DNA from: Candidatus Poribacteria bacterium
GTDB lineage: Bacteria > Poribacteria > WGA-4E > WGA-3G
Assembly (NCBI GenBank): GCA_965200395.1
Contig: CBDAUH010000003.1
Span: 874,398 to 938,397, forward strand
Direction of reading: 5' to 3'
Length of the DNA: 64,000 nt
A program made the position numbers and the translations under genes. The notes below the pieces were generated by a model. It saw only the letters and a list, made by a program, of their open reading frames with translations. It ran no database searches and was not told where the DNA came from. Shown here piece after piece: positions 6,821 to 27,478 of this stretch. Each line of letters opens with the position of its first letter. The first letter of the stretch is position 1.

Positions 6821-6904
6821 AGGCAAATATGTCGCGTTGGTTTTCTCACTCATTTGTTTTATTCTATAATATGAAGGATATTTTGTAGCGAAAGCTGTTA
6901 GTTT

Positions 6905-6945
6905 TTGCATCCGTGGAACGCAAACTGACAGTTTGCTCTACAAAG
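6905..6945. repeat. Palindromic repeat, copy A (perfect 17-mer GCAAACTGACAGTTTGC at 6920-6936)
   Basis: About 100 bp upstream of the HEAT lipoprotein start. It is the inverted counterpart of the copy at 36700-36722. Confidence 0.55.
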
Positions 6946-6998: not shown

Positions 6999-9900
6999 CT
7001 ACTCTCCGGCAATTACCAATTTTGTCAAATCGGCTACGGCATAGATATGTTTTGCTATACGATTTAGCAACGCTAATCTATTTCTGCGAAGGTCAATGTC
7101 TTCAGCCATGACAAGAACATCGTCAAAGAACTTATCTATTGTGGGTTGCAGTTCTGCTAACTGTTTCAAAAGTTCTGCGTATTCTCTTGCCTGGATGCTT
7201 TTCTTAAGGTTAGGTTCTGCTTCGGTGATATGAGCGTTTATTTTTTTTTCTGCATCATCTTTTAGCAATTTAGTATCTACAGTTTCTGGTGCATTTTCAG
7301 GCAATATTCTAAGTACTCGGTTGAGTGCATTATATACTTCTTCAAAATTGGGTGTCAAGCGAAATTCGGCAAGTCCGTTTACCCGTTTGAGGATATCCGT
7401 AATATCGACATCACCGACCGCCAAGATTGCATCGGCGAGGTCAGGGGTGTATCCTTGTGTCTGCAAGATAACGCGTAAGCGTTCTTTGATGAAATTGAGC
7501 ACACTTGTTTTTGTGTCGACAGACAATTCCATGTCATATAGTGAGATGGCTTTTTCTACTACTGCATCTAACGAGAGTGGAAGTTGTAGATCTTGTAGGA
7601 TACGTATTGTGCCGAGGGCATGTCGTCGTAAGGAGTATGGGTCTTGTGATCCTGTAGGCTGTTCTTCTATTCCGAAGTATCCGGCTATGGTGTCAATTTT
7701 GTCAGCGACAGCAAGTATTGCGCCGGCTTCGGTTTCGGGCAGCGGTGTATCCGCACCCAATGGTTGATAATGTTCAGCGATGGCATCTGCTACCTCTGCA
7801 GTTTCACCGGAATTTTGAGCGTAGTACCGTCCTGTAATTCCTTGTAGTGATGGGAATTCTATGACCATTTGGGTGGTTAAATCTGCTTTACAGAGCCAAG
7901 CTGCGCGTTCTGCGTGATGCATGGTTGTGTCCGATAACTTCAATTCTGTGGTAATAAACTTCACCAATGCCTTTATACGATTTGCCTTGTCTAATAACGA
8001 TCCGAGTTTAGCATGAAAGACGACTGCCGCTAAACGTTCAACTTTATCAGCAAGTTTTGTTTTCTGATCTTCACTATAGAAGAACTCAGCATCGTTAAGG
8101 CGTGCATGTAGCACACGTTCATTACCGTGCCGAACACCGTCAATATTGCCATCTGTACTGTTGGAGATGGTAATGAATTTTGGTGCAAGTTCATTATTGC
8201 TTTTCCACATTGGAAAATACCGTAGATGCTTTTTCATTGCTGTAATCAGCACTTCAGGCGGTATTTCCAGATGTGACTCACTGAAATTCCCGACAATTGG
8301 TTGTGGATTTTCTACGAGATAGTTCACCGTATCTAACAATTCTTCATCTATTACAGGCAAACATCCTTCGGATTCTAAGACGGTTCTCACCTGTTTTTCT
8401 ATGGTATTGTGTCGTTGTTTTGGGCAAACGATAACATCAATTTCTTGCAGTTTCTGAATATAGGTATCCACGTCTGACGATGCTAAAGTGATAGGTTCGG
8501 GATGCAGCGATCGATGTCCATAAGTGATTCGATCTGCGTGCGCTGCTCCGTAAGTACAGTTGACTACTGTATCTCCGAGGAGTGCCACAAGCCAACGAAT
8601 TGGGCGGGCAAAACGGGCAAATGCTTTCGGTTCTTCAGGCTTTGTTTCCCATCGCATTGTTTTAGGAAAACGGAGTTCTTCAACCCATTCAGGCAAGAGT
8701 GTTTTCAGCAGTTCGAATGTTGATATTCCCTTTTCGAGTTTGGAGACAGCGATGTATTCTCCTCGTTCGGTTTCAACGATGCGGATGTCGGAAAGTTCAA
8801 TATTTTGTGATTTTGCAAAGCCGATGGCTGCCTTTGTTGGTTCTCCGCTTTCATCATAGGCGATGCTTTTTGGCGGTCCAACGATTTCTGTCTCTTGACT
8901 TTCCTGTAAAGTCCTAACATCTTTGATACTCAGTGTAATCCGTCTCGGTGTGCCGAAGGTCTGAATGTCTCCAAACGGAATTCTGTGTTCTGCAAGGGAC
9001 TTCGTTGCAATATCACGAAGTTGGTCAAGGGCGGGCGGTACATAACTTGCGGGGATCTCCTCTGTGCCGATTTCGAAGAGAAGGTCTGCGGATTCATGAG
9101 GCGTAGAAATCTTAACTGTTTCTGTGGGTTTAGTTTCAACAGGTAATGATTCTGTGGTAAAGCGCCCCAACAAAGGATGCCCCATCTCTTCGCGTTGTGT
9201 GACATAAGCGCGTGCAATACGTTGTGCAAGTCGTCGGACGCGTTCAATATAATTCACCCGTTCCGTTACACTGATAACACCCCGTGCATCCAGCATATTA
9301 AAAGTGTGGGAGCACTTCAAGACATGGTCGGTTGCGGGAAGGACTAAACCGGCATCTAAACACGTGTGTGTTTCCTTTTCATAAGTGCTAAATTGGTCAA
9401 ACAGCATGTCTACGTTGGCATGTTCGAAGTTGTAGGTTGAGTATTCTACCTCGCTTTGATGATGGACATCTTGGTAGTTCAGGTGTTCATTCCAACGGAT
9501 ATCGAAAAAGGTGTCAACATCCTGCAGATAGAGTGCGATACGTTCGAGTCCGTAGGTGATTTCGGCACAGATTGGGGCGAGGTCTATGCTGCCCATCTGT
9601 TGGAAGTATGTGAATTGTGTGACTTCTGCGCCATTCCACCATACTTCCCAGCCGAGTCCGGATGCGCCGAGTGTGGGTGATTCCCAGTCGTCTTCTACGA
9701 AGCGAATATCGTTTTTACGGGGAGAGATGCCGAGATGGTAAAGACTTTGGAGATAAAGTGGTAGTACGTTTTCTGGTGCTGGTTTTAGTAGGACTTGGTA
9801 TTGGTAGTATGCGCCGAGGCGGAAGGGGTTTTGTGCGTATCTGCCGTCGGTGGGTCTCCTGACAGGTTCTACGTACGCGGCGTTCCATGGTTCTGGGCCG

Positions 9901-10028
9901 AGGCATCGTAAAAATGTGGCGGGGTTAAATGTCCCTGCTCCGACTTCTATATCGCAGGGTTGTTGAATGATACATCCGTGTTCTGCCCAAAATTTTTCTA
10001 GTGCTAATATTATTTCTTGAAAGGTCAT
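6999..10028 (-). CDS. glyQS: Glycine--tRNA ligase, fused alpha-beta subunits
   Basis: The N-terminus from [21 protein letters not shown] matches GlyQ alpha; the long beta-like remainder follows in one frame. ATG at 10026-10028. The 10415 start in the ORF track is an over-extension into the IS-flanking repeat. Confidence 0.85.
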
Positions 10029-10189
10029 ATTTGTTTGTTGTTGTCCGCTCCGTTTCTGTTGGTTGATTCGGGTAATTATTATAGCACAATGGAATTGGTT
10101 AATCAACGAATTTTCAGATGCCTCATTTACCCCCTTTATCCTCCCGCAGGCGGGGGGAGATAAGAATGGATGGAAGAGACCCCCCTTTA

Positions 10190-11528
10190 TCCCGCACTTA
10201 CCCCCATTTTTTTTTTGAATGCGTGTGTAGTTGTGTTCATAGGTCTCCAATGTTGTCATGTCAGTTCTTCTGCGGTGAGAAAGTTTATATCTCTCAAACA
10301 AGTCCTCTCGGTGAACAAGAGCAACGCCTCCTGCGTCCACACCTCGCGGATCATACGGTTGATGACACTGATCACGGAGTAAACTTTCCGCGTAGGGTGT
10401 AAAGTTTTTGCCCATCTGTCCGCAGCTTTTTCATAACACAGGAACGCCAAACCATAAGCCACGACTGCCAACAAAAACAGAACTTCCATCCGGGGCTGTT
10501 CGTTCTTTCTCAAAACGAGTGCTTTGAAACCGAAGTTCGTTTTCAAGTCTCTGAACCCGTGTTCAATCTGTGTCCGCCGCTTGTAGCAAGTTCGCAGGGG
10601 GTTCCCCTGAAGCCGATTGGAGATAAGATATAACGGGTCTTTCTTGGTGTGCTGTCCCCCAACATAGAGTGCCACAGGCACCTGCTCCGTGTAGTGATAA
10701 AGCACTTGTGGGTAAAAACCATTTGCCACTTCTTCAAGGCACTGCTTGTTGCCTGCTATACGCACACCAACATTGCGTGGCACACGCATCAAGTAGCAGA
10801 TGCCTTGCCCCTCAAAAAACTTGAGGATCGCTCTCGCTCGGGCGAACCCTCTGTCAAAAACCAACACAGGCTCCCGACTATCCCCTAACACTTTAACAAC
10901 GCGACTATGGACATCACAACAGAACTGCTGAACTAAATCGTTATGTCCTTGATAGGTGCCATCTTTGAGCATCTCATTTTTATACAGAACCCAATAGAGC
11001 GGGATCGCACGATTGCGAAACGGAAGGGCTGCAACAATCGCCTTCCATCCGCCCGGTAAATCTGTCTCGTCTATCAGCACAAGCAGATGCTGCATCCCCA
11101 CAGAACGACACACACTGACAACTATATGTGACAACCAAGCACCCTTCACCGCTGCAACCGGAAAATAGGTGTCAATAAACCGCAACACACGCTTTTGCTT
11201 AGACTTGTCGTGTTTCACACGGATAGGTAGATGTGAGGCAATCGATTGAATACGAAAACTTGGGGCTACACACACAGCCTGTAGCATCAAATAAAAGTTG
11301 CGGAGCGTCGGTTTTTTGATACAAACCCCGTTGAAAACTTTACGAAAACCTGTTATAATCTTTCTGGGATGTACCCAGCTAAGGGTATATTTCATAAGAA
11401 TACCTCCCTGCCGGTTTTTCACCGACATTATTTTATATGGAGGTATTCTACCATAACCCATCAGACTTTCCAACTTATTTCTATACACACACACGCCTAC
11501 ACATACCGCATACAAAAATGGGGGTAAG
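10190..11528 (-). mobile_element. IS4-family insertion sequence
   Basis: DDE transposase ORF flanked by roughly 12-bp terminal inverted repeats: cacttaccccca at 10194-10205 and tgggggtaagtg at 11514-11525. The element sits inside an array of GC-rich palindromic units (CCCGCAGGCGGGG). Confidence 0.6.
10256..11395 (-). CDS. IS4-family DDE transposase
   Basis: [15 protein letters not shown] is a Y-x2-R-x3-E-x6-K signature. ATG at 11395 is preceded by a GGGAGG ribosome-binding site. Confidence 0.75.
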
Positions 11529-13066: not shown

Positions 13067-13124
13067 GATTTAATTTTTTCGGTGGGAAATTATTTGGGTA
13101 GATTTTAATATGTTTCTGAATTTT

Positions 13125-13215
13125 GGATTACACTAAATCAACGGTATGAATGCCTTTTGGCATTCCCCGGATTACGCGGATAAACGTGGATTTTGTTTTT
13201 TGTGAGTACTGATGT
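13125..13215. repeat. Dispersed hairpin-containing intergenic repeat (copy R1)
   Basis: caaatcaacggtatgaatgccttttggcattccccggattacgcggat...ggattttgttttttgtga; near-identical copy at 18786-18890 and a degenerate copy at 15128-15215. Confidence 0.5.
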
Positions 13216-13553
13216 TTGTAGAGCAAATTTTTGAGTCTGCTGAAGAAATATCGGTGGTTAGAATTTCTTGATGATTCCATCTCGAACCGCTTTCAGGGCA
13301 TTCAATTTTAACGTGTTGGGTTTCACTGCGTTCAACCCAACCTACTGTAGGGGCGATCTTCCGCTCATGACCCCCTTCGCAACAATGCCCAAAAATCCGA
13401 CAATTGAATGGCTCTGGTACCGCTTTGCGACTGAATTCTTTATCAGTTGTTGTGTGTGCCCAAATTGTTTAGTTTTCTTCAGTAATTGTGGTGTGCTTCT
13501 AAACTGTTTCTACTCACTTATTAAGAATACGGAGTATTTTCTCAGTTTCTGCT

Positions 13554-14984
13554 TCAAGTTTTACATCGCCCGCCTGTATCGCAAGCCGCAGGGCGGTTGC
13601 GGAGGTCTTGCCTCGCTTCCAGAATCCGACCTAAAAGACCCTTCGCGAGTCCTCGAACATAGTATGCTCTGGCATAATCAAGTTTTAGTCTTATGGCAAT
13701 GTCATAATCGGCAATCGCAGCACTGTATTGTTCCAATTTACCCTTTGCATTTCCCCGATTGTAGTATGCTAAGGCATCAGGTTTTAGTCTTATGGCGATG
13801 TCATAATCAGCAATCGCAGCAAAATGTTGTCCCAAGTTATCCTTCGCAGCTCCCCGATTGTTGTATGCTTCGGCAAAATCGGGCTTGAGTCTTATGGCGA
13901 TGTCATAATCAGCAATCGCAGCACTGTATTGTCCCAAGTTATTCTTGACACTTCCTCGATTGTAGTATGCTAAGGCATCAGGTTTTAGTCTTATGGCAAT
14001 GTCATAATCAGCAATCGCAGCAAAATGTTGTCCCAAGTTATTCTTCGCAGCTCCCCGATTAAGGTATGCATCGGCAGCATTAGGTTTTAGTTTTATGGCA
14101 GTGTCAAAATCGGCAATTGCAGCAAAATGTTGTCCCAAGTTATCCTTCGCAGCTCCCCAATTGAGGTATGCATTGGCATCATCGGGTTTGAGGCGGATAG
14201 CCTTGGTATAGTCTGTGATGGCACCTGCGTAATCGCCTAACTTGTACTTCACGTTTCCCCACAGAAAGTAGGTCTCCGCAGAGATAGAAGATTGTCCTTG
14301 TGATAAAGGTTTTGACAGCCCCGGTCCCTTCAGCAGCTTTTTAAGATATTTGGATGGAATGGCAAAGTTAAGGTTCTGGGCATCCAAGGATCTGTGGGTA
14401 GAAAAGGACACACCAATCACTTCGCCTTTACGATTTAGCACAGGACCGCCACTACTCCCAGGAGAAATCGGCGCAGTCATCTGCAAACGTTCTTTTGTGT
14501 ACTTATCTCTACGGCTACTGATAAGACCATCCGAGAAGGTGCCTTCTAATCCTTTCGGATTACCTGCAACGTAGACTGTCTCACCGATTCGTACGGTATC
14601 GCTTTCACCCAGCGAAAGCGGTTTGATGCCGTACGCGGTCACCTTTAGAAGTGCAAGGTCGTTTACCTTGTCGGTTGCTGTAACGCCTTCAATCTTGTAT
14701 TGGGTATATTTACCGACTAACTTTGCGGTACCTTTAGCTGCGCCTTCAATTACGTGGTAGTTCGTAGCAATGAGATTAGATTTGACAAAGAATCCGCTGC
14801 CGATTCCGAGGGTTTTTCCGTTTTTGTCCTGCATCTCCAAGTATACTGTTGCTGCTAATGCTTTTTCTGCGATGTCTTCGGCGGGGAGGGTGGTTTGTGC
14901 TGGTGCTGTGATTGTTATGCAAAAGAGGAGAAAAGTGGCTGCGCATTGGGAGAATATCCATAATAATTTGGCTTTGTGTTTCAT
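13554..14984 (-). CDS. Secreted trypsin-like (S1/HtrA-like) serine protease with C-terminal TPR array, paralog 1
   Basis: Signal peptide MKHKAKLLWIFSQCAATFLLFCITITAPAQ; catalytic-triad context TNYHV (His), DLALLKV (Asp) and GSSGGPV (Ser); followed by about 7 TPR repeats. The C-terminal tail differs from the paralogs because of a 1-nt indel near 13590. Confidence 0.8.
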   Translation of the reverse strand: MKHKAKLLWIFSQCAATFLLFCITITAPAQTTLPAEDIAEKALAATVYLEMQDKNGKTLGIGSGFFVKSNLIATNYHVIEGAAKGTAKLVGKYTQYKIEGVTATDKVNDLALLKVTAYGIKPLSLGESDTVRIGETVYVAGNPKGLEGTFSDGLISSRRDKYTKERLQMTAPISPGSSGGPVLNRKGEVIGVSFSTHRSLDAQNLNFAIPSKYLKKLLKGPGLSKPLSQGQSSISAETYFLWGNVKYKLGDYAGAITDYTKAIRLKPDDANAYLNWGAAKDNLGQHFAAIADFDTAIKLKPNAADAYLNRGAAKNNLGQHFAAIADYDIAIRLKPDALAYYNRGSVKNNLGQYSAAIADYDIAIRLKPDFAEAYNNRGAAKDNLGQHFAAIADYDIAIRLKPDALAYYNRGNAKGKLEQYSAAIADYDIAIRLKLDYARAYYVRGLAKGLLGRILEARQDLRNRPAACDTGGRCKT

Positions 14985-15040
14985 GGTATTTTCCTTTGAT
15001 GGTGTAGCTTGTCTTGAAGATTGAACGTGTTATTGACAAA

Positions 15041-15069
15041 ATGATAACACAATTTGCTGAAGGTGTCAA
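15041..15069 (-). promoter_or_regulatory. Near-consensus sigma70 promoter of protease paralog 1
   Basis: Minus strand reads TTGACA-17 nt-TATCAT, about 55 bp upstream of the ATG at 14984. The element is conserved upstream of all three paralogs. Confidence 0.55.
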
Positions 15070-15484
15070 GAGTGTTTTTGTTTTCAACGGAGGCATTCAA
15101 AAGTCGCGGATTTTTTGTCAGAATCTCGGATTTTCACCAAATCAACGGTATGAATGTCATTTAGGCGTTCCTCGGATTATCTTTGTCAGGATCGCGGAGG
15201 ACACTAAATCTGAGGCAATTGAATGGCTCTGGAAACATCACAGAAAAGGTTGCCTGTTCTACGGCAAATTTGTTATAATTTTAACATCATGTTTCGGGTG
15301 GAACTGCTACGAATCGGAAACCCTTTTTCGTTTCTCCGCCCCTTCTGCTGTAGCAGAGGATAGAATAAAATGGAGGCGGGAATCCGAGGGAGATGATACT
15401 GGAAGGATCGCTGCGTGTGTAGCAAACAAAACATGGCACACCCATCACCTTGCCACACCAAAATCTAATTTGGAGGTAATTAAA

Positions 15485-16159
15485 TTGGGAAAACACCATA
15501 ACATTCAGAGCGGAACAGACTGGATAAATAACATTGTTACTTTCAACGGACAAGGATGTTCGGGGAAAACGACCCAAGTGAAACTGCTTGCCAACTCAAA
15601 TAAAGAGGAGTATAAACGCATTCATAGTTATAAACTTCGGAGGAAGTTCAAGAAAAAAATTTATGAGAAAACGGAGGGTATGAATACAGATATCAAGTAC
15701 TTAAATGAGAGTGGTACTTGTAAGAAACTATACAGTGTGGAAGTTTCAGGACATCCTTCCTTCGCTTGGTTGATAGCTAATTTTTACAAGACAGCGAAAC
15801 CACTTATGTTGGAGGGCACCACCGTTGTTTTAGATCACTATCTCGGCGACTATTATGCCGATATGTTAGCTTGTGTTGATATTGCGGATCTTCTATCTCT
15901 CGTCAGAGAAGATTTGGTGATACCAGATTTTGATCAAGGTACGCATTTCTATCTTGATATTGATTACGAGATCTATCAGGAGAGATGGCGCGAGCGGGAA
16001 GGAACCGAGCCGCGAGTGAATAGAGAAACTTTTAAAAAACGACGTGAACGCTATCAAGAACTTTGTGAATTGACACCGCTGAAATGTATTGACGCTAAGG
16101 TGAGTAAGGAGGAGGTTGCTAAAAAGGTACAAGAGGTTTTAGCTTGCGAAAATCAATAA
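15485..16159 (+). CDS. P-loop kinase-like protein (thymidylate/dNMP-kinase-like Walker A)
   Basis: FNGQGCSGKTTQ Walker A near the N-terminus. Proposed TTG start at 15485 with a GGAGG ribosome-binding site 8 nt upstream. The upstream part of ORF 15014-16159 overlaps the promoter and repeat and is rejected. Confidence 0.45.
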   Translation: MGKHHNIQSGTDWINNIVTFNGQGCSGKTTQVKLLANSNKEEYKRIHSYKLRRKFKKKIYEKTEGMNTDIKYLNESGTCKKLYSVEVSGHPSFAWLIANFYKTAKPLMLEGTTVVLDHYLGDYYADMLACVDIADLLSLVREDLVIPDFDQGTHFYLDIDYEIYQERWREREGTEPRVNRETFKKRRERYQELCELTPLKCIDAKVSKEEVAKKVQEVLACENQ

Positions 16160-16263
16160 AAAAGCAGTGTGTTATGTAGTACTATGTGGCCAGACGATCA
16201 TGTTCCGAGTCAATGTGGTTTCAGCTTCGATCGCTTATGTACTTACAGATAAAGGAGAAAATA

Positions 16264-16902
16264 ATGTCAAGTGAAATGTTATTACGAAATGCGATTTCCA
16301 CGATTGCCAACGATGGTATTGAAGAATGTCGGAAAGAGATTGAGAAAGCGGAATACCGCTGTGGACTTATTACAGAAAAAGACGTTTTCCTGAATAACTT
16401 CATTTGGATGGGGCCTCCAAAGGAATGGGAAGCGTTTACACCATCGGCTACCGAAATCGGTAAGCTTTATGAAGAGATAGCACCTCAAGAAGAACCGGCG
16501 CGCACACTAAACACTGTTGTTGAAGGTATAAAGAAGAGGTTTCCGGATGCGGATACCGCTGTGGGCGCGGTAAGTGCCCTTTACAAAACGTCTGAATGGT
16601 TTGGCAAACACTTAAGCCTTTGTACACACTTTGATGTGCATCTTATGTCGTCGCTATGGGTCAGGAATCTCCGATCTTCGAGTGGATCAGAATCGGCAGA
16701 TAAACTTTATATTGAAGATGGGAACCATCGAGCGTTAGTTTATGCAATACGGTTGATCTATGGTGCTGAAAAGGAATTTAGACCTGTTCGAGTGATTTGG
16801 TGTAAGTCATGGGAGCACATTCTTTGTTGGGCAGGTGATCCTGAAGCTGGAGATTCACCGCCTAGTGCTCTTGAGGAGTTTTTTACCGCATCGGTGAAAT
16901 AG
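16264..16902 (+). CDS. ParB/Srx-like nuclease-domain protein
   Basis: YIEDGNHRALVYAI is a DGxHR ParB/sulfiredoxin-fold signature. ATG at 16264 is preceded by an AAGGAG ribosome-binding site. Confidence 0.5.
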   Translation: MSSEMLLRNAISTIANDGIEECRKEIEKAEYRCGLITEKDVFLNNFIWMGPPKEWEAFTPSATEIGKLYEEIAPQEEPARTLNTVVEGIKKRFPDADTAVGAVSALYKTSEWFGKHLSLCTHFDVHLMSSLWVRNLRSSSGSESADKLYIEDGNHRALVYAIRLIYGAEKEFRPVRVIWCKSWEHILCWAGDPEAGDSPPSALEEFFTASVK

Positions 16903-16998: not shown

Positions 16999-17139
16999 TC
17001 ACAATCTGATATACCTATTTTCTATGCCAAGTCTGCGCGCTTCCGCCCAGAGCAACTTCTGAAAGAACGTAACTGCTGTCTCCAGATTGAGTTGATCAAG
17101 GTCGTCGTTCTTCAGGGTGAAAATATTTTCATGATGCAT
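16999..17139 (-). pseudogene. 5' remnant of a second STAND NTPase gene copy
   Basis: Minus-strand translation MHHENIFTLKNDDLDQLNLETAVTFFQKLLWAEARRLG matches the first ~38 aa of the 19081-22860 product; a stop follows 9 codons later. The upstream GGGGGAG ribosome-binding site and conserved intergenic sequence are also present. Confidence 0.6.
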
Positions 17140-17373
17140 CACTTCACTCCCCCAAATTACTGAATTTTCTATTATGGTTAAATATGAAAATAAATAGACA
17201 CCGCATCCATAGAAGTGATCCTAGAATTTCGCCTTATCTCAATAATAGTCGGGTTTCGCAAGCTCTACCTGACCTACAAAATGTCCGATTAATTCTAAAA
17301 TCTACCATAGTTGTTGTGTGTGCCCAAATTGCTTAGTTTTCTTCAGTAATTGTGGCGTGCTTCTAAACTGTTT

Positions 17374-18756
17374 CTACTCACTCATTAAGTTAAGAATACG
17401 CAGTCCCTCCTCGATATCTGCTTTAAGTTTTACATCGCCCGCTTGTGTTGCAAGCCGCAGGGCAGTGCGGAGGTCTTGCCTCGCTTCCAGTGTCCGACCT
17501 AAAAGACCCTTTGCAAGTCCTCGACCGTAGTATGCATCGGCATAATCAGGTTTTAGTCTTATAGCGGTGTCATAATCGGCAATCGCAGCAAAATGTTGTC
17601 CCAAGTTATTCTTCGCAGCTCCCCGATTAAGGTATGCATCGGCAGCATTAGGTTTTAGTCTTATAGCGGTGTCATAATCGGCAATTGCAGCAAAATGTTG
17701 TCCTAAACGAGCCTTTGCATTTCCCCGATTGATGTACGCATCGGCATAATCAGGTTTTAATCTTATGGCGGTGTCAAAATCAGCAATTGCAGCAAAATGT
17801 TGTCCCAATTTACCCTTCGCATTTCCCCGATTATTGTATGCTGTGGCAACATCAGGTTCGAGTCCTATGGCAATGTTATAATCAGTAATCGCAGCAAAAT
17901 GTTGTCCCAATTTACCCTTCGCATTTCCCCGGTTGTTGTATGCTGAGGCAACATCAGGTTCGAGTTGGATAGCCTTAGTATAGTCAGCGATGGCACCCGC
18001 ATAATCGCCTAAATTGTACTTCACATTTCCCCACTGGAAGTAGGTCTCGGCAGAGATAGAACGTTGTCCTTGTGATAAAGGTTTTGACAGCTCCGGTTGC
18101 TTCAGCAGATTTTTAAGATATTTGGATGGAATGGCAAAGTTGAGGTTCTGCGCATCCAAATCCTTATAGACAGCAAAGGACACACCGATTACTTCGCCTT
18201 TTTTGTTTAGCACAGGACCGCCACTGCTCCCAGGAGAAATCGGCGCAGTCATCTGCAAACGTTCTTTTGTATATCTATCTCGACGGCTACTGATAATGCC
18301 ATTCGAGAAGGTTCCCTCTAATCCTTTCGGATTGCCCGCAACATAGACTGTCTCGCCGATTCGCACAGTATCGCTGTCACCAAGGGAAAGCGGTCTGATA
18401 CCGTACGCAGTTACCTTTAGGAGTGCCAGGTCGTTTATCTTGTCGGTTGCTGTAACGCCTTCGATGTTGTATTGGGTATATTTGCCGACTAACTTTGCGG
18501 TGCCTTTGGCTGCGCCTTCAATTACGTGGTAGTTCGTAGCAATGAGGTTAGACTTGACAAAGAATCCGCTGCCGATGCCGAGGGTTTTTCCGTTTTTGTC
18601 CTGCATCTCCAGGTATACTGTTGCTGCTAATGCTTTTTCTGCGATGTCTTCGGCGGGGAGGGTGGTTTGTGCTGGTGCTGTGATTGTTATGGAAAATAGG
18701 AGGAAAGCGATTGCGCATTGGGCGAATATCCACAATAATTTATTTCTGTGTTTCAT
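17374..18756 (-). CDS. Secreted trypsin-like serine protease with TPR array, paralog 2
   Basis: More than 90% identical to paralog 1 across the protease domain, with about 6 TPR units and an intact C-terminus ...LRILNLMSE. Confidence 0.8.
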   Translation of the reverse strand: MKHRNKLLWIFAQCAIAFLLFSITITAPAQTTLPAEDIAEKALAATVYLEMQDKNGKTLGIGSGFFVKSNLIATNYHVIEGAAKGTAKLVGKYTQYNIEGVTATDKINDLALLKVTAYGIRPLSLGDSDTVRIGETVYVAGNPKGLEGTFSNGIISSRRDRYTKERLQMTAPISPGSSGGPVLNKKGEVIGVSFAVYKDLDAQNLNFAIPSKYLKNLLKQPELSKPLSQGQRSISAETYFQWGNVKYNLGDYAGAIADYTKAIQLEPDVASAYNNRGNAKGKLGQHFAAITDYNIAIGLEPDVATAYNNRGNAKGKLGQHFAAIADFDTAIRLKPDYADAYINRGNAKARLGQHFAAIADYDTAIRLKPNAADAYLNRGAAKNNLGQHFAAIADYDTAIRLKPDYADAYYGRGLAKGLLGRTLEARQDLRTALRLATQAGDVKLKADIEEGLRILNLMSE

Positions 18757-18785: not shown

Positions 18786-18890
18786 TTGGTTCTGAATCGC
18801 GGATTACGCCAAATCAACGGTATGAATGCCATTTGGGCATTCCCCGGATTACGCGGATGAACGCGGATTTTGTTTTTTGTGACTGCTGGT
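18786..18890. repeat. Dispersed hairpin repeat (copy R3) inserted between promoter and start of protease paralog 2
   Basis: Near-identical to 13125-13215. Confidence 0.5.
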
Positions 18891-19009
18891 GTCTGTTTGT
18901 GGTATAGTTTTTCGTCTATGTTGTGCTTGTGCAACCTAAAGGTTTATGGTATATCGGCGTTTCGACCTATCTTCATATTTCGGGCAGTGAACTCATGTTA
19001 TTGTTGAAA

Positions 19010-19080: not shown

Positions 19081-22000
19081 TTAAAATTCTCGTTCTTCGT
19101 ACATCTTCGCGTTTGTAATCTCTACTTCCAGTATGGCGACAAACTCATCAACCCACTGTTTTACATTCTCATTGTCTTCGCTCGCTTTTATACGGCAAAG
19201 TTTCTGCTTTTTCGCTTGATAGTTTTCACTTTTCAACCCCATCGTTACTCCTTCGAAAAAATTGGAGATGAGCGCACTGCGAACATCTTCTCTATTACCA
19301 TAGCGGACGAGGATTTTTCGCGCCAAGGAATCGCCCCATTCCGCTGCTGCAAGCGTTTTCGGAACACACCCACGCGCAAGAGACCTTGCGCGCTTTTCTA
19401 CGTCTTCGTCAATCCATTCCCAGATGTTTTTCGGTGGGATCAAGGTCAATGCGCCTGTTCCTTTTTTCGTCTCCGAGAGGTCTGTCTCTCTCATCCATTT
19501 TTCAAAAGCGCGTGTTCTCCAAAAGTCTTCTGAATCTTCTAAGGCGTTGCTAACGCGTTTCCAAACCGCTACTGGGGCCTGTTTCGCCATTTCGGTGAGA
19601 ATAGAATTCGTCTGTGAATAGACATCAAACAGTGCTCCCTTTTTACCGAAGTGAACCAGCATACGTTCTACAAGTTCTAAAGCTTTTGTTGGATGGTGGT
19701 GTATGAACATTTTTCCGATTTTTGTCCAATGATAAGTCATCATGCTATCGGTTTGATGTTCTTCCAACACGGATGAATGCGTGAGCACTTGGAACGTAGG
19801 ATCAAGCGGTAAAACCTGTTCGTTTTTATTTAAGATATAGTAACGGTGATACAGCTTTAAGGCGATGGCTACGGCAGATGTCTCCGTGGATTCCAGTAAA
19901 AATTCAATCCATTTCTCAAAGACTCCAACCGATAGATTTTCTAAGCCTTTAGCGGAGCTCAATATTCCGAAGTGCTTATGATTGATGATTCCGTTTTGCG
20001 CGAGTTTCAGGAGGCTCACCCCCGCTGCATCTGTCATGCCTGAATACGAGATGAGTTCCGGAATGTGCACATTCAGTATTATATCTTCGCTGAGCGTCTC
20101 TAGTTGCTTTTCCCATCTCTCAAGGTCGGTGTTAAGGAGTGCAGAAAAATAACCTCCCAGAAAATACACGCTTGCATTTTCTGGGACGTTTCGCTGAGCC
20201 TCCAGCAGCATTGGGAGCAGCGAAAAACCGTTATCTTCTTGACCGAGTGCTTCTCCAAACCGATACCCGTTGTGTGCTTCAGTTGTGGCGAGCCATCGCA
20301 GTTCAGATTGCAAAAGCGATGGTGTCTCCACGGCTTGTTGTGCAAGGACCTGTATCTGTGGATGCCCGTGTACAAGATGATTTTTGTTTTCGTCAAAGTC
20401 GTCTGTGAGCAAATTCATTCCGACATACCGTTGCAGCCTCGATGGAAAGTTATCTCCTAGTAAATCGTCTATGAGCTGTTCCAACTGCTTGCGGATGTCA
20501 ACGGATAAACCTTTGCCATTGACGTAGGAATCATCATGAGACAGAATGTGACTCAGGGCGGTGATCACCTGCTTTTCGGTTGCATACCCTTTTTCAACGG
20601 TTGTTCTCATTGTACGGACAACGGTAGCTGCGAGATCGGGGATTCTCGCCATCGCGCTTGCATGACTCAGCAGAATGTTTATTCCTGTCTCACGCTCATC
20701 TTCAGGTAATATGGGCAATTGCGTAGACAAGAGTTGCCAGACGCGTCGGTAGGCATCCCAAAGTTCACCGTATGTTTTAGGGACCCAAAACGCGGGTTCT
20801 TTGCGTAGCCCTTGATATTCAGCACTTCCTGTCCGTGAAAAAAACTCTGATGTGAGTGCGGAGTCGCAAGCCCTTAAAGCAAGGAGTCTGCGTGCCTTGG
20901 ACTTAGATTTAAGTGCCTCTTCCAAGACAGGGAACCGCTCTGCGGGGGAGGCTTCGGAATGTGCAATGGGGCCAGATCCCGGTGAGAATATCTCGACAAA
21001 CATACCACTGGCGTTGTTTGCACAGCCCTCATTCTCTGCTTCGCCGAGGGCAAGCAGGAGACGCGCCGCATCTGTGAACAGATCTCGCCAAAATGCAATT
21101 TTTTCGAGGGCATATACGATGTTTCTTCTGCTATCTGTGAGTTGCAAAAGCGTTTTTCTGTCCCATTTCCCCACGGTTGCCTTAAGGCATTTTAAGGCAG
21201 AGGCGGGATCAGCGTTTGTCAATGCTAAAAAAAAACGGCTGCCCAGTCTTGTTTTCAGAGATTCGTTATTCTGGAAGGGGCCCTCTGGCCCGAGGAGGTC
21301 TCTGGCAATACCGGAGGCTGCTTCCGATTCAGCTGCGTACTCGAACATCTCGTAGAACCACTCAACCAATCTTGGGGGTAAGTCTTCAATGAACTGTTCA
21401 AGATGAAACAGTCTATGATGCCGTTCCCACCACTGTGTCCATAACTTGATATGGAGTGCTTTGGGTGTAATGTAGAGTGTGAATTCACCTTGAAGGATTT
21501 TACGTTCTTTGAGTTCGTGGAGGATATTTTCAAATTTGTGGGGTGTAATTTCTGGTGCTGCCGCCTGTACTTTTTTTGCGATGGCTTCTGCCTCAACAGC
21601 AACAGAGCGTTCATAGCCGAACCGCTTAAAGAGTGCCAGATGTTGGAGGATTAATCGCCGGTGTTCTGTTTTTTGGTGGTCGTCATCGCCTGCTGCGATA
21701 TAACGTTCCCATATATCCACTGTATCAGGTGGGAGCAGTACATCTTCTGGATGATTTACCAAATTCCATCCGATGACGTGTGCGACCCTGGGGGAGCCGC
21801 CGCAGAGTTCAGCCCACCGATTGACTGAAGGGGCAGAGATCGTCGTATACGTCTCAATGATGCTGCGAATTTGTCCATCTTCAAGTGGTGGCGCGACATA
21901 AGGGATAATGCCGCTGGTCCGCTCCTCATAGTCGTTATAGATCGTAACCAATTTAACGCGAGGTCCGCGGTGTCTTAATTTCTGCCAAATCTCATATTTG

Positions 22001-22860
22001 TTGTCTGGGTCACATTCATCAATAACGACAATCGCACAAAATGGGTTATCCTCTCGGAGCAGCGCGTTTATCAAAACACTGTCTCGAAATTGTGATGGTG
22101 TGCAGTAGATTACTAAAGGTGATAAATCTTCTGCCCGCGTTGCTTCAAGCACTAATCGCGTTTTACCAATACCGGGTTCACCTAAGACGCGTATGTGAAC
22201 GGTATCTTCATCTCGCCGCAATTCGTTTTGTAGCTCTTCAATAAAGTCTTCTTGTGCCTGTCCGAGAAACAGCGGGTCCTGCATACCCGCATTCTGCTCC
22301 CAGCTCTGATGGGTTTGAAATTTTGCCTCGCTAAGTTCCTTGGTGTCCAATGCTAACGATGGGAACCGTTCAACAAAACCGATGAGCGTATTCTGACTCC
22401 ACACCTCAACTTTTGGGGGTTGTCCGTGTTCAGATGTCAGAATGCTCTTAATGTGAGAAAGGATTGCTCTGTGTTCACTATCAACAAGGTCAATTCCGGT
22501 GCATACCAAAACGTAAGTTCCATCAGCCTCAAGACAGGCTTGAATACCTTCCTTAATGTTTTCTTGTATATTGAGGAGTTCTTTTTCGATATTTGGTTTT
22601 GTTTTTCCTGATTTGATCTGATAGAAGGTTTTGCCTGGCTTAATGAGGCCTCCGCTGATTGTTTCTTGAGCTTCGTTCACAGTTGCATCGATCCCTCCAT
22701 CTGGGACATGCACACGGCGCGATATATTTATTTTTCCGATTTCTACGCCGAGTCTACGCGCTTCTGCCCACAGCAGCTTCTGAAAGAACGTAACTGCCCT
22801 CTCCGGATTGAGTTGAGCAAGGTCGCTGTTCTTCAGGGTGAAAATATTTTCATGATGCAT
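19081..22860 (-). CDS. STAND-type P-loop NTPase with N-terminal Mrr-like nuclease domain and about 800-aa C-terminal helical-repeat sensor region (Avs-like candidate)
   Basis: N-terminal segment VHVPDGGIDATVNEAQ...YQIKSGK fits the Mrr-cat D-(E/Q)xK pattern. Walker A VLGEPGIGKT and Walker B IVVIDECD are present. ATG at 22860 with a GGGGGAG ribosome-binding site. Confidence 0.7.
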   Translation of the reverse strand: MHHENIFTLKNSDLAQLNPERAVTFFQKLLWAEARRLGVEIGKINISRRVHVPDGGIDATVNEAQETISGGLIKPGKTFYQIKSGKTKPNIEKELLNIQENIKEGIQACLEADGTYVLVCTGIDLVDSEHRAILSHIKSILTSEHGQPPKVEVWSQNTLIGFVERFPSLALDTKELSEAKFQTHQSWEQNAGMQDPLFLGQAQEDFIEELQNELRRDEDTVHIRVLGEPGIGKTRLVLEATRAEDLSPLVIYCTPSQFRDSVLINALLREDNPFCAIVVIDECDPDNKYEIWQKLRHRGPRVKLVTIYNDYEERTSGIIPYVAPPLEDGQIRSIIETYTTISAPSVNRWAELCGGSPRVAHVIGWNLVNHPEDVLLPPDTVDIWERYIAAGDDDHQKTEHRRLILQHLALFKRFGYERSVAVEAEAIAKKVQAAAPEITPHKFENILHELKERKILQGEFTLYITPKALHIKLWTQWWERHHRLFHLEQFIEDLPPRLVEWFYEMFEYAAESEAASGIARDLLGPEGPFQNNESLKTRLGSRFFLALTNADPASALKCLKATVGKWDRKTLLQLTDSRRNIVYALEKIAFWRDLFTDAARLLLALGEAENEGCANNASGMFVEIFSPGSGPIAHSEASPAERFPVLEEALKSKSKARRLLALRACDSALTSEFFSRTGSAEYQGLRKEPAFWVPKTYGELWDAYRRVWQLLSTQLPILPEDERETGINILLSHASAMARIPDLAATVVRTMRTTVEKGYATEKQVITALSHILSHDDSYVNGKGLSVDIRKQLEQLIDDLLGDNFPSRLQRYVGMNLLTDDFDENKNHLVHGHPQIQVLAQQAVETPSLLQSELRWLATTEAHNGYRFGEALGQEDNGFSLLPMLLEAQRNVPENASVYFLGGYFSALLNTDLERWEKQLETLSEDIILNVHIPELISYSGMTDAAGVSLLKLAQNGIINHKHFGILSSAKGLENLSVGVFEKWIEFLLESTETSAVAIALKLYHRYYILNKNEQVLPLDPTFQVLTHSSVLEEHQTDSMMTYHWTKIGKMFIHHHPTKALELVERMLVHFGKKGALFDVYSQTNSILTEMAKQAPVAVWKRVSNALEDSEDFWRTRAFEKWMRETDLSETKKGTGALTLIPPKNIWEWIDEDVEKRARSLARGCVPKTLAAAEWGDSLARKILVRYGNREDVRSALISNFFEGVTMGLKSENYQAKKQKLCRIKASEDNENVKQWVDEFVAILEVEITNAKMYEEREF

Positions 22861-22963
22861 TACTTCACTCCCCCAAATTACTGAATTCTCTATCAGTTGT
22901 TGTGTGTGTCCAAATTGTTCAGTTTTCTTCAGTGATTGCGGTGTGCTTCTAAACTGTTTCTAC

Positions 22964-24642
22964 TCACCTATTAAGAATACGTAGCAGCTTCTCGATATCT
23001 GCTTTGAGATTTGCATTGCCTGCTTGTGTCGCAAGCCGCAGTGCAGTGCGGAAGTCTTGTCTCGCTTCCAGTGTCCGACCTAAGCTACCCTTCGCAAGTC
23101 CTCGACCGTAGTATGCATCGGCATAATCAGGTTTTAGTCTTATGGTGGTGTCATAATCGGCAATCGCAGCAAAATGTTGGCCTAAGTTACCCTTTGCAAC
23201 TCCCCGGTTGTAGTATGCTAAAACATAGTCGGGTTTTAATCTTATAGCGGTGTCATAATCGGCAATCGCTTCAAAATGTCGTCCTAAGTTTTTCTTCGCA
23301 AGTCCCCGGTTGTTGTATGCTTTGGCATCATTTGGTTTTAGTCTTATAGCGGTATCATAATCGGCAATCGCAGCAATGTATTGTCCTAAATCGGTCTTCA
23401 CATTTCCCTGATTATAGTATGATGATACCTCATCGGGTTTTAGTCTTATAGCGATGTTATAATCGGCAATCGCCTTAAAATGTTGTCCTAAATTAGCGTT
23501 CACATTTCCTCGGTTGTTGTATGCTTTGGCATCATTAGGTTGTAATCTTATGGCGGTGTCATAATCGGCAATCGCAGCAGTGTATTGCCCTAAATCAGCC
23601 TTCGCCAGTCCTCGGTTGTTGTATGCTTTGGCCTCATTTGGTTTTAGCCTTATGGCGATGTTATAATCAGCAATTGCCTCAAAATGTTGCCTCAACTTAT
23701 GCTTCACAAATCCCCGGTTGTTGTATGCTTCGACATAATCAGGTTTTAGTCTTATAGCAGTGTCGTAATCGGCAATCGCCTCAAAATGTTGCCCCAGGTT
23801 ATACTTCGCAAGTCCGCGACTGTAGTATGCCGTGGCATTCTTTGGTTCGAGTTTTATGGCCTTGGTATAGTCTGCGATGGCACCTATATAATCGCCTAAC
23901 TCGGACTTCACATTCCCCCACAGGAGGTAGGTCTCCGCAGAGATAGAAGATTGTCCTTGTGATAAAGGTTTTGACAGCCCCGGCCCCTCCAGCAGCTTCT
24001 TAAGGTATCTGGATGGAATAGCGAAGTTGAGGTTCTGTGCATCCAAAGATCTATGGTAGAAAAGGACACACCGATTACTTTACCTTTTTTGTTTAGCACA
24101 GGACCGCCACTGCTCCCCGGAGAGATCGGCGCAGTCATCTGCAAACGTTCTTTTGTGTACTTATCTCGCCGGCTACTGATAATGCCATCCGAGAAGGTGC
24201 CTTCTAACCCTTTCGGATTACCTGCAACGTAGACTGTCTCACCGATCCGCACAGTATCGCTTTCGCCCAGCGAAAGTGGTTTGATGCCGTACGCTGTCAC
24301 CTTTAGGAGTGCAAGGTCGTTTATCTTGTCGGTTGCTGTAACGCCTTCAATCTTGTATTGGGTGTATTTACCGACTAACTTTGCAGTGCCTTTAGCTGCG
24401 CCTTCAATTACGTGGTGGTTGGTAGCAATAAGATTAGACTTTACAAAGAACCCGCTGCCGATTCCGAGGGTTTTTCCGTTTTTGTCCTGCATCTTCAAGT
24501 ATACTGTTGCTGCTAACGCTTTTTCTGCGATGTCTTCGGCAGGGAGGGTGGTTTGTGCTGGTGCTGTGATTGTTATGCAAAAGAGGAAAAAAGCGGCTGC
24601 ACATTGGGGGAATATCCACGATAATTTATGTCTGTATTTCAT
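22964..24642 (-). pseudogene. Trypsin-like protease with TPR array, paralog 3, frameshifted
   Basis: Split into ORFs 23908-24642 and 22964-24046. A 1-nt deletion relative to the paralogs lies near 24050; about 9 TPR units. Confidence 0.55.
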
Positions 24643-26426: not shown

Positions 26427-27113
26427 TTATACTGCATTAGCAGCCTTTATGAAATGTGAGAACCCAGTGAGTTTAGCGATAGCAGCATCGGAATAACTTT
26501 GAAGTATCTCCGTCACTTTCGCTTGCATAGCCTCAAGCGTCTCATAGAACTCGGTAAACAACTTCGCTTTCAAGTCTTGCCAGAAACGCTCAATTGGGTT
26601 CAACTCCGGACTATACGGCGGTAAGAAAAGTAAAACAACATTAGCAGGAACCACTAACGATTTAGCATGATGAAAACGACCCTTATCAAGCACTAATAAG
26701 TTGAGGCTCTCCGCGTAGGCAACCGATACAGCATCAATGAAACACTGAAAACAATCTGAAGTCAAGTGGGAAAGTTCTAAGAAAAATCGCTCACCTGTCA
26801 AAGGTTCAACCGCACCATAGAGATAAACCGATGTATATTGGTAATCTATCTTCGCGACAGGTTTGACACCGCGTTGCGTGATACGCCGTTCTGTAGTAGG
26901 CAAAAGACCATATCGCGTCTCATCTTGACTGAAAACACGAACGCTTTGAAAATCCGCACCTTTTTCAGCAACCGCATCAGCGACATGTTTGCTAAACTCG
27001 GAGCGGAATGTTTCAGTCGCTACTGCGTTTTTTTTTACATGGCTCTTACGAGGCACTTTGAGTTTGGCTCCCCATTTATCATGAACCATTGCGTAAACAG
27101 TTTTATAGTTCAT
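26427..27113 (-). CDS. IS630 transposase, DDE domain (orfB)
   Basis: ...FLPPYSPELNPIERFWQDLK is the DDE_3 signature. Confidence 0.75.
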   Translation of the reverse strand: MNYKTVYAMVHDKWGAKLKVPRKSHVKKNAVATETFRSEFSKHVADAVAEKGADFQSVRVFSQDETRYGLLPTTERRITQRGVKPVAKIDYQYTSVYLYGAVEPLTGERFFLELSHLTSDCFQCFIDAVSVAYAESLNLLVLDKGRFHHAKSLVVPANVVLLFLPPYSPELNPIERFWQDLKAKLFTEFYETLEAMQAKVTEILQSYSDAAIAKLTGFSHFIKAANAV

Positions 27114-27478
27114 TTGATGCCAAACGTGTCAGCGATATACTTTTGGATTTCCACATAACTCGTAAAACCTTCAGGTTTCCGCAGTTCTTCAAGTAAGAGG
27201 GTTTGCTGTTCTTCAGTGAGGATGGGTTCGCGTCCGGGGGCGTATCCGCGTTGCAGCATTTTCTCAAGTCCGCCGGTTTCATAAGCATGTAGCCAGGTGC
27301 CGACACTTGTGCGATCAACGCCGAGGAGGCGGGCGACTTGGACACGATTTTTCGCCTCGCCACTTTTCAAGAGATAGAGCATATTCAGGCGCAGGATTTC
27401 ATGCTTCTTTTTCGCTTTTCGTAAGAGGTCTTTCAAGACCTCTACACTTTCTGTAATCTCTGGCACTTTTTTATTCAT
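27110..27478 (-). CDS. IS630 transposase, N-terminal HTH domain (orfA)
   Basis: Helix-turn-helix region ARLLGVDRTSVGTWL. It overlaps orfB by 4 nt. Confidence 0.7.
   Translation of the reverse strand: MNKKVPEITESVEVLKDLLRKAKKKHEILRLNMLYLLKSGEAKNRVQVARLLGVDRTSVGTWLHAYETGGLEKMLQRGYAPGREPILTEEQQTLLLEELRKPEGFTSYVEIQKYIADTFGIK

Follow-up and report, generated by a model that had tools for sequence, protein, structure and literature searches.

A probable stand-alone antiviral STAND nuclease of the Avs8 type in Candidatus Poribacteria

The DNA analyzed here, called the window throughout, is a stretch of 64,000 nucleotides from a Candidatus Poribacteria bacterium (assembly GCA_965200395.1, contig CBDAUH010000003.1, positions 874,398 to 938,397 of the forward strand). 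Positions 19081 to 22860 hold a minus-strand gene for a protein of 1259 amino acids laid out in three parts: a nuclease domain (residues 1–195), a STAND NTPase module (residues 196–485) and a solenoid sensor (residues 486–1259). An original prediction, made from the letters alone, had called this product an Avs-like antiviral protein with a nuclease effector. From the analysis described below, the gene product is probably an antiviral STAND receptor-effector of the Avs8 (PD-λ-4A) type that acts on its own as a single polypeptide. The gene and its parts are as follows, in positions of the window, with the basis of each assignment in brackets.

19081..22860, minus strand: complete coding sequence of the Avs8-like STAND nuclease, 1259 amino acids plus stop (open reading frame list, translation, homologs of the same size, PADLOC, hhalign)
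22861..22912, minus strand: upstream region with a GGGGGAG ribosome-binding site at 22868–22874 and a weak sigma-70-like match
22276..22860, minus strand: predicted N-terminal PD-(D/E)xK (Mrr-type) nuclease effector domain, residues 1–195
22687..22701, minus strand: nuclease motif D54-G-G-I-D58, the “PDGGID” segment (conservation; also invariant in canonical Avs8A)
22612..22620, minus strand: nuclease motif Q81-I-K83, the QxK segment of D...QxK (conservation; aligns with the invariant Q78 and K80 of Avs8A)
21406..22275, minus strand: STAND NTPase module, residues 196–485, with nucleotide-binding domain, helical domain and winged helix
22159..22182, minus strand: Walker A, GEPGIGKT, residues 227–234 (translation; conservation)
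22012..22032, minus strand: Walker B, IVVIDEC, residues 277–283 (conservation)
21787..21798, minus strand: G-S-P-R, residues 355–358, read as the presumed GxP motif of the helical domain (conservation; start of a helix in the model)
19084..21405, minus strand: predicted C-terminal alpha-solenoid (HEAT/ARM-like) sensor, residues 486–1259 (AlphaFold2 model, fold matches, deep profile)

The gene and the parts of its product

The gene is real and intact. Its reading frame opens with ATG and continues uninterrupted for 1259 codons to a stop, and it is not a chance frame, since many full-length homologs of the same size exist. The ribosome-binding site is located 7 nt 5′ of the ATG. The sigma-70-like match further upstream (TGGACA, a 16-nt spacer and GAGAAT) should be considered only a candidate promoter because sites of this kind were no more numerous in the region than in shuffled sequence; counts from the promoter and terminator scans of the region were both at chance level. 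GC content (0.469) and GC content at third codon positions (0.46) are near the values of the neighboring genes and give no clear sign of recent transfer.

All motifs quoted in the original prediction were found in the translation, with HVPDGGIDATV at residues 52–62, YQIKSGK at residues 80–86, GEPGIGKT at Walker A and IVVIDECD at residues 277–284. Conservation was counted in an alignment of 136 diverse relatives that are 31% to 52% identical to the window protein. In the nuclease domain, D54 is kept in 135 of the 136 sequences, and G56, D58, Q81 and K83 are each kept in all of them. In the NTPase module, the Walker A lysine K233 is kept in 135 and the Walker B aspartate D281 in 136, position 282 is E or D in 132, and P357 and R358 of the GSPR motif are kept in 135 and 129, respectively. 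Due to this near-invariance among relatives of such low identity, both the nuclease and the NTPase centers are under purifying selection.

Residues 1–200 adopt a restriction-endonuclease, PD-(D/E)xK fold in the AlphaFold model, for which fold comparison returned FokI, MspJI, LlaBIII, AF1548 and Avs4 as neighbors. The label “Mrr-type” is used because of the D...QxK motif, the neighbors MspJI, LlaBIII, AF1548 and Avs4, and the description of Avs8A in the literature. As modeled, the N-terminal domain is a nuclease effector like those of Avs proteins, with predicted activity. In MspJI, AspBHI and LlaBIII, which are Mrr-type modification-dependent or translocating restriction enzymes, the nuclease is coupled to DNA-recognition or helicase-methylase modules, whereas here it is coupled to a STAND switch and a protein sensor.

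Several family representatives have odd N-terminal alignments. Four of these (P0237, P0249, P0263 and P0271) carry an extra XRE-like helix-turn-helix of ∼90–110 residues before the nuclease domain, and another four (P0164, P0183, P0212 and P0284) carry a basic low-complexity loop inserted within it. Effector swapping was considered for such members and rejected, as the same nuclease is kept and only the loop or the helix-turn-helix is added. Replacement of the nuclease by another effector was seen in none of the best 150 family members.

In the model of residues 196–1259 (predicted local distance difference test score, pLDDT, 80), an alpha/beta P-loop domain is followed by a helical domain, by a winged helix that has a beta-hairpin at TLYITP, and by an alpha-solenoid without interruptions. 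The NTPase part matches the folds of NRC2 and NRC3 (NLR), ORC1, Cdc6 and SSO1545; the plant NLRs and Cdc6/ORC1 resemble the window protein in this fold and differ from it in their effector and sensor domains. The GSPR motif, presumably the GxP or “GLPL” motif known from STAND and NB-ARC proteins, sits in the model where a helix begins within the helical domain. With Walker A, Walker B, GxP and winged helix, the central module is, on the model, a P-loop NTPase of the STAND type.

The C-terminal ∼770 residues are modeled as all-alpha repeats (AlphaFold2, pLDDT about 80), and their best fold matches are SF3B1, importins, CRM1, TOG domains and beta-catenin, which are of the HEAT/ARM type. The helical-repeat C-terminus of the original prediction is thus borne out by structure prediction as an all-alpha, HEAT/ARM-like solenoid. 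A search of the C-terminal 740 residues against Pfam found nothing. As modeled, then, the protein has those structural hallmarks of the Avs kind that could be checked, namely an effector, a STAND NTPase and a long repeat sensor.

An acidic tail, EEREF, ends the protein (residues 1255–1259; 19084–19098), and E1255, E1256 and R1257 are near-invariant in the clade of the window protein. A tail of this kind is common to both clades, reading EQRFE in canonical Avs8A. It is a possible autoinhibitory or oligomerization contact.

Relationship to Avs8A and predicted mode of action

PD-λ-4 has been renamed Avs8 in two preprints, both of which describe DNA degradation by Avs8A upon contact with monomeric HK97-fold major capsid protein (MCP). 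Avs8A is described as a STAND NTPase with an N-terminal Mrr-family nuclease (bioRxiv 10.1101/2025.07.02.662641). According to the same study, full defence needs only Avs8A, Avs8B being dispensable in E. coli; λ gpE and the Bas21 MCP are bound by Avs8A with nanomolar affinity, and after binding it degrades double-stranded DNA in an ATP- and Mg2+-dependent manner; assembled capsids do not trigger it; and MCPs of <15% mutual identity are recognized through their fold rather than their sequence. A survey from the Gao laboratory counts Avs8 as one of three MCP-sensing Avs families, the sensors of which wrap the HK97 fold (bioRxiv 10.64898/2026.01.04.697583).

The window protein matches the PADLOC model PD-Lambda-4_A (PDLC03991) with an E value of 6.8e-32, residues 6–687 aligning with profile positions 3–699 of 1283, and its close homologs give the same partial pattern on this model. 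For profile comparison, 27 canonical Avs8A sequences were assembled. The set was anchored by an Enterobacter mori plasmid protein, which scores 1764 bits end to end on PD-Lambda-4_A, and one member (P0401) shares 98.4% identity with the NTPase fragment published for ECOR07 Avs8A, with the same coordinates. P0403, which is near-identical to P0401 and lies outside the set, is 99.5% identical to that fragment; BLASTP of the window protein against P0403 gave E 3e-21 with 23% identity over 738 amino acids. An hhalign comparison of a 31-sequence profile of the window clade with the 27 Avs8A sequences gave a probability of 99.8% and E 1.3e-28 over 1194 columns (5–1266 against 2–1274 of 1283).

Because a long collinear alignment can be carried by a strong N-terminal half, homology was evaluated part by part. 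With the shallow 31-sequence profile, the nuclease, the NTPase and residues 520–700 were each significant, and the sensor from residue 700 onward was not (E 0.069). A deep profile was then used that contained the window protein and 135 diverse cluster representatives (136 sequences; effective number of sequences about 5.5–6.5). Over the full length it aligned with Avs8A at E 1.8e-59 across 1206 columns, and the parts gave the following values.

Nuclease: E 4.4e-22
NTPase: E 1.1e-22
Residues 520–700: E 2.8e-16
Sensor, residue 700 to end: E 7.9e-15 over 515 columns
Sensor, residues 700–1000: E 6.4e-12
Sensor, residue 1000 to end: E 1.7e-5

Homology of the sensor was accepted only because the 136-sequence profile gave E 7.9e-15 where the shallow profile had failed. 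By these profile alignments, the window protein truly belongs to the Avs8A superfamily over its full length, although the relationship is distant (∼20% identity to the characterized proteins), and its sensor is homologous to that of Avs8A, the part that defines an Avs family. The NTPase module likewise is homologous to the Avs8A NTPase domain, which is listed among NTPase-domain sequences in the supplementary table of the Gao laboratory. The tripartite reading of the original prediction (Mrr-type nuclease, STAND NTPase and helical sensor) therefore holds up, through homology to Avs8A along the whole length and through the fold models.

Avs8A of E. coli ECOR07 (WP_000963924.1) and its gammaproteobacterial orthologs have the same order of three parts in 1283 amino acids, compared with 1259 here, and the window protein is collinear with Avs8A from residue 5 to the C-terminus. 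The nuclease signature PDGG[IV]D ... Q-x-K and the Walker A pattern G-x-x-G-x-GKT are common to both. Walker B reads D-E-C in the window protein and D-N-C in Avs8A, and the proline of GxP, found in the window protein (GSPR), is replaced by another residue in Avs8A (GNAR). The hosts differ as well, being a Poribacteria-like sponge symbiont here and Enterobacteriaceae for canonical Avs8A. Avs4 (EcAvs4, PDB 8DGF) is a portal-sensing STAND protein with an Mrr-like nuclease whose fold resembles that of the window protein; its sensor family and its published target are different (bioRxiv 10.64898/2026.01.04.697583). Searches of PDB sequences with the single sequence and with a profile returned no relative of the window protein, Avs4 included, and an NCBIfam search with the window protein returned nothing relevant.

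No partner gene was found. An E. coli Avs8B query, validated by 649 bits on PD-Lambda-4_B (PDLC03992), gave a best tblastn E value of 2.3 in the window, with no Avs8B downstream of the STAND gene, and the PD-Lambda-4_B model matched none of the window neighbors. Vassallo et al. and PADLOC define the PD-λ-4 system by two genes, and without a B gene the window gene falls outside it. By analogy with Avs8A, which suffices alone, the likewise solitary window gene would act as a single gene. The contig L036, which carries a protein near-identical to ECOR07 Avs8A, has Avs8A–Avs8B directly downstream of genes matching the PADLOC retron-type models HTH_VI and RT_VI, with an Upx-like gene near, and is a typical defence island.

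From homology and from the published work on Avs8A, the following mode of action can be proposed. In an uninfected cell the protein would be an autoinhibited monomer. Upon infection, the solenoid would wrap a newly made, unassembled phage protein, by analogy most likely an HK97-fold MCP. Binding would relieve autoinhibition of the NTPase, which with ATP and Mg2+ would drive oligomerization, probably to a tetramer, and so bring the N-terminal nuclease domains together. These would then degrade double-stranded DNA indiscriminately, aborting phage replication at the cost of the cell (abortive infection). A partner would not be needed, as Avs8B is absent here and dispensable in E. coli.

Among Avs8 proteins, EcAvs8A is the only one for which recognition of monomeric HK97-fold MCP is known. 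Trigger specificity may differ from that of Avs8A because overall identity is low and sensor homology past residue ∼700 is so faint, and it is possible, although on balance unlikely, that the same architecture and effector logic are combined with a diverged sensor that reads another phage protein or cue than the HK97-fold MCP. Sensor identity to Avs8A is ∼17–19%, homology was visible there only with the deep profile, and even then no better than E 1.7e-5 was obtained for the final 260 residues. Variability in the close clade is highest in the last two thirds of the sensor (57–60% mean pairwise identity versus 67–70% for NTPase and winged helix). The locus-specific lineages described below, at least three in number, ∼60% identical to each other and possibly paralogs, could reflect different specificities, and alternative activators are known for some Avs proteins (bioRxiv 10.64898/2026.01.04.697583). 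Against a different trigger, the sensor is collinear end to end with the MCP-binding sensor of Avs8A, near-equal in length and provided with a common C-terminal tail. Moreover, a diverged sensor could still read the same fold, since Avs8A recognizes MCPs of <15% identity by fold and not by sequence (bioRxiv 10.1101/2025.07.02.662641).

Family distribution and loci of homologs

A search of 5.8 billion proteins gave 1378 matches, the best 120 of which are nearly all full-length (1257–1323 amino acids) and 53–70% identical. HMMER, run exhaustively over 1.84 billion cluster representatives, gave 3511 clusters (50% identity) at E ≤ 1e-3, of which 1136 match at E ≤ 1e-30. The best 150 clusters are mostly single collinear matches to proteins of ∼1220–1360 amino acids, the rest being shorter fragments. 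A scan of genome contigs with the single window protein found nothing, and the same scan with an alignment found 19 loci. Relatives in species-representative genomes are distributed as follows, with identity to the window protein.

Poribacteria, many metagenome-assembled genomes: 48–56%
A gammaproteobacterial metagenome-assembled genome: 55%
Clostridia: 43%
Coatesbacteria: 39%
Sulfuricella: 37%
Acidobacteriota: 35%
Nitrosomonas: 34%
Hyphomicrobiales: 33%
Pirellulaceae, Aeoliella: 30%

Full-length copies are also carried by cyanobacterial (Pseudanabaena) plasmids at 35% identity and by haloarchaeal plasmids (Haloarcula, Haloglomus and Halorubrum) at 25–30%. HK97-fold capsids occur in tailed viruses of bacteria and of haloarchaea, and this host range fits the distribution of the family without proving the trigger. 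A scan of IMG/VR viral contigs and a tblastn search of INPHARED phages returned no relative and thus gave no indication that phages carry the gene.

Nine loci of close homologs were inspected, and the gene is solitary at all nine. Three loci (L001, L006 and L033) have it inside a type I restriction-modification operon, between hsdM and hsdS/hsdR, with an AAA_15/DUF3696 gene adjoining. At four others (L003, L008, L031 and L032) it directly follows a MoxR-DUF58-BatA operon, and at three of these four a DarT(-Macro) gene lies two or three genes downstream. The remaining two are in other places, one of them near a gene for an N6_N4-Mtase-HNH protein and IS1595. Protein identity among close homologs is 70–94% within a locus type and about 60–64% between locus types, and the window protein forms a further lineage together with P0001 (70% identical). 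The Poribacteria-type homologs thus comprise at least three locus-specific lineages, possibly paralogs with different specificities; two lineages in one genome were not seen.

Some of these features would also suit a housekeeping or regulatory STAND protein outside defence, with a part, for instance, in repairing DNA or in signal-dependent regulation. Protein length and architecture vary unusually little over >150 clusters, GC content of the gene is near that of its neighbors, four homologs are syntenic after MoxR-DUF58-BatA, and the window offers no defence neighbors. We nevertheless consider such a role very improbable. The protein has a homolog, Avs8A, whose role in defence was proven by experiment, relatives of the window protein are patchily distributed over phyla and domains with copies on plasmids, and some copies sit inside type I restriction-modification operons or beside DarT. 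Divergent lineages, possibly paralogs, are found at different loci, a second copy has decayed in the window, and a regulator would hardly be expected to carry an unspecific Mrr-type nuclease head.

Several results weigh against the assignment as an antiviral receptor-effector of the Avs8 type. Identity to characterized Avs8A is only 19–23%, and past residue ∼700 neither pairwise comparison nor the PADLOC HMM nor the shallow profile revealed homology of the sensor. The domain searches suggested by the original prediction stayed below significance: residues 1–200 matched nothing in Pfam, even at E ≤ 10, and thus not Mrr_cat (PF04471), while around the P-loop AAA_16 scored 20.8–22.2 bits (E 5.7e-4) against a cut-off of 32.6, NB-ARC scored 12.8–15.6 bits (E 0.01–0.07) against a cut-off of 23.5, and NACHT gave no match with the whole protein or with three slices of it. 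For this reason, support for the tripartite reading is drawn from PADLOC, profile–profile and fold comparison. In addition, no other recognized defence gene was found near the STAND gene within the window, and the MoxR-DUF58-BatA operon that precedes four homologs is in itself no defence context. Association with defence islands is seen only at the loci of homologs (restriction-modification operons and the neighborhood of DarT), to which plasmids are added.

What is known here is the Avs8 kind; what is new is a deeply divergent, unannotated member or clade of it, and no new principle is involved. The gene itself is named “hypothetical protein”, as are its relatives wherever the source gives a name, and no Pfam model exceeds its threshold, which leaves a gap in annotation. 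Rule-based defence annotation may well skip the gene, given that it matches only about half of the PADLOC A model and has no B gene beside it. Through the link to Avs8, a very large family (the 1136 clusters mentioned above) acquires a function that can be tested, and the link also suggests that Avs8-like pattern recognition extends well beyond enterobacteria, including sponge symbionts and haloarchaeal plasmids. Divergent sensors of this family are also natural variants with which to compare how one solenoid scaffold reads a conserved viral fold. A specialist would be unsurprised, and the main value lies in the annotation and in these sensor variants.

A broader and rather doubtful suggestion is that the window protein stands for the largely unannotated bulk of the Avs8 superfamily, from which the E. 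coli proteins would be a divergent side branch. This bulk would consist of thousands of clusters from many bacterial phyla and haloarchaea with one fixed architecture of nuclease, NTPase and solenoid, and sponge-symbiont Poribacteria would possibly hold several locus-specific paralogs, with sensors for different viral proteins or for the capsid folds of different virus groups. If true, capsid-pattern sensing would extend to archaea and to uncultured symbionts.

Surroundings of the gene in the window

The original prediction had placed the gene in an island of amplified paralogs, insertion sequence (IS) elements and a ParB-like/kinase pair. These surroundings are present, and the region is plastic and rich in IS elements and paralogs. 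It is not a classic defence island, and none is recognizable in the window, where the neighbors are secreted proteases, IS elements, the kinase/ParB-like pair and housekeeping genes. The features concerned are listed below.

13554–14984, minus strand: trypsin-like serine protease with tetratricopeptide repeats (protease-TPR), paralog 1
15014–16159, plus strand: P-loop kinase gene, weak thymidylate-kinase-like similarity, motif GQGCSGKT, true start probably internal
16186–16902, plus strand: ParB-like gene, ParB-nuclease-like DGNHR motif, no Pfam match
17019..17172, minus strand: relic of a second STAND copy (repeat family D7, DNA alignment, tblastn and translation)
17374–18756, minus strand: protease-TPR paralog 2
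22964–24642, minus strand: protease-TPR paralog 3, split by a frameshift near residue 197
10256–11515, 26427–27478, 40155–41309, 44179–45456 and 52530–53762: transposase genes, five in 64 kb

The protease-TPR paralogs thus flank the STAND gene on both sides, on the same strand. The three proteins are 76–82% identical, with 34-residue TPR repeats that vary in number, and all have a hydrophobic, signal-peptide-like N-terminus. The relic is 154 nt long and 91% identical to the STAND gene, covering 33 nt of upstream sequence and the first ∼41 codons before it is truncated; its translation by tblastn reads MHHENIFTLKNDDLDQLNLETAVTFFQKLLWAEARRLGIE and reaches a stop a few codons on. It therefore implies that a [protease-TPR + STAND] block was once duplicated in tandem, after which most of the second STAND copy was lost. 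The kinase and ParB-like pair now occupies the place of the lost copy, on the opposite strand.

The arrangement raises the question of a multi-gene system in which the flanking protease-TPR genes would supply a protease effector or co-sensor. Their position on both flanks, the duplication of protease and STAND gene as a block that the relic suggests, and matches of the protease domain to defence-associated protease models in PADLOC would all agree with this. We regard such a system as most improbable, given that the signal-peptide-like N-termini suggest export, that none of the nine homolog loci has such a neighbor and that Avs8A works alone (bioRxiv 10.1101/2025.07.02.662641). Because of these N-termini, the protease-TPR proteins are probably exported and unrelated to Avs function. 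A functional link between them and the STAND gene was rejected, both on these grounds and by their absence from the homolog loci.

A short intergenic element of ∼50–110 nt with an internal inverted repeat occurs in three copies (13111–13219, 18787–18896 and 15115–15164), only in this local region; the second copy lies between the start of the protease gene and the shared upstream block. This suggests a small insertion or a recombination scar. Four of the five transposases are of the DDE_Tnp_1 type, and one is an IS630-like DDE_3 protein with a helix-turn-helix open reading frame.

The rest of the window includes genes for a fused GlyRS, HflX, a TonB-dependent receptor, a HEAT-repeat protein and glycosyltransferases. 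About 130 codons precede the first Pfam domain in the GlyRS open reading frame (6999–10415), which also overlaps a transposase frame, so its true start is probably later. The HEAT-repeat protein (2966–6910, minus strand) is a eukaryote-like repeat protein of 1314 amino acids, built almost wholly from repeats of the HEAT/PBS-lyase type (HEAT_2, E 1e-105).

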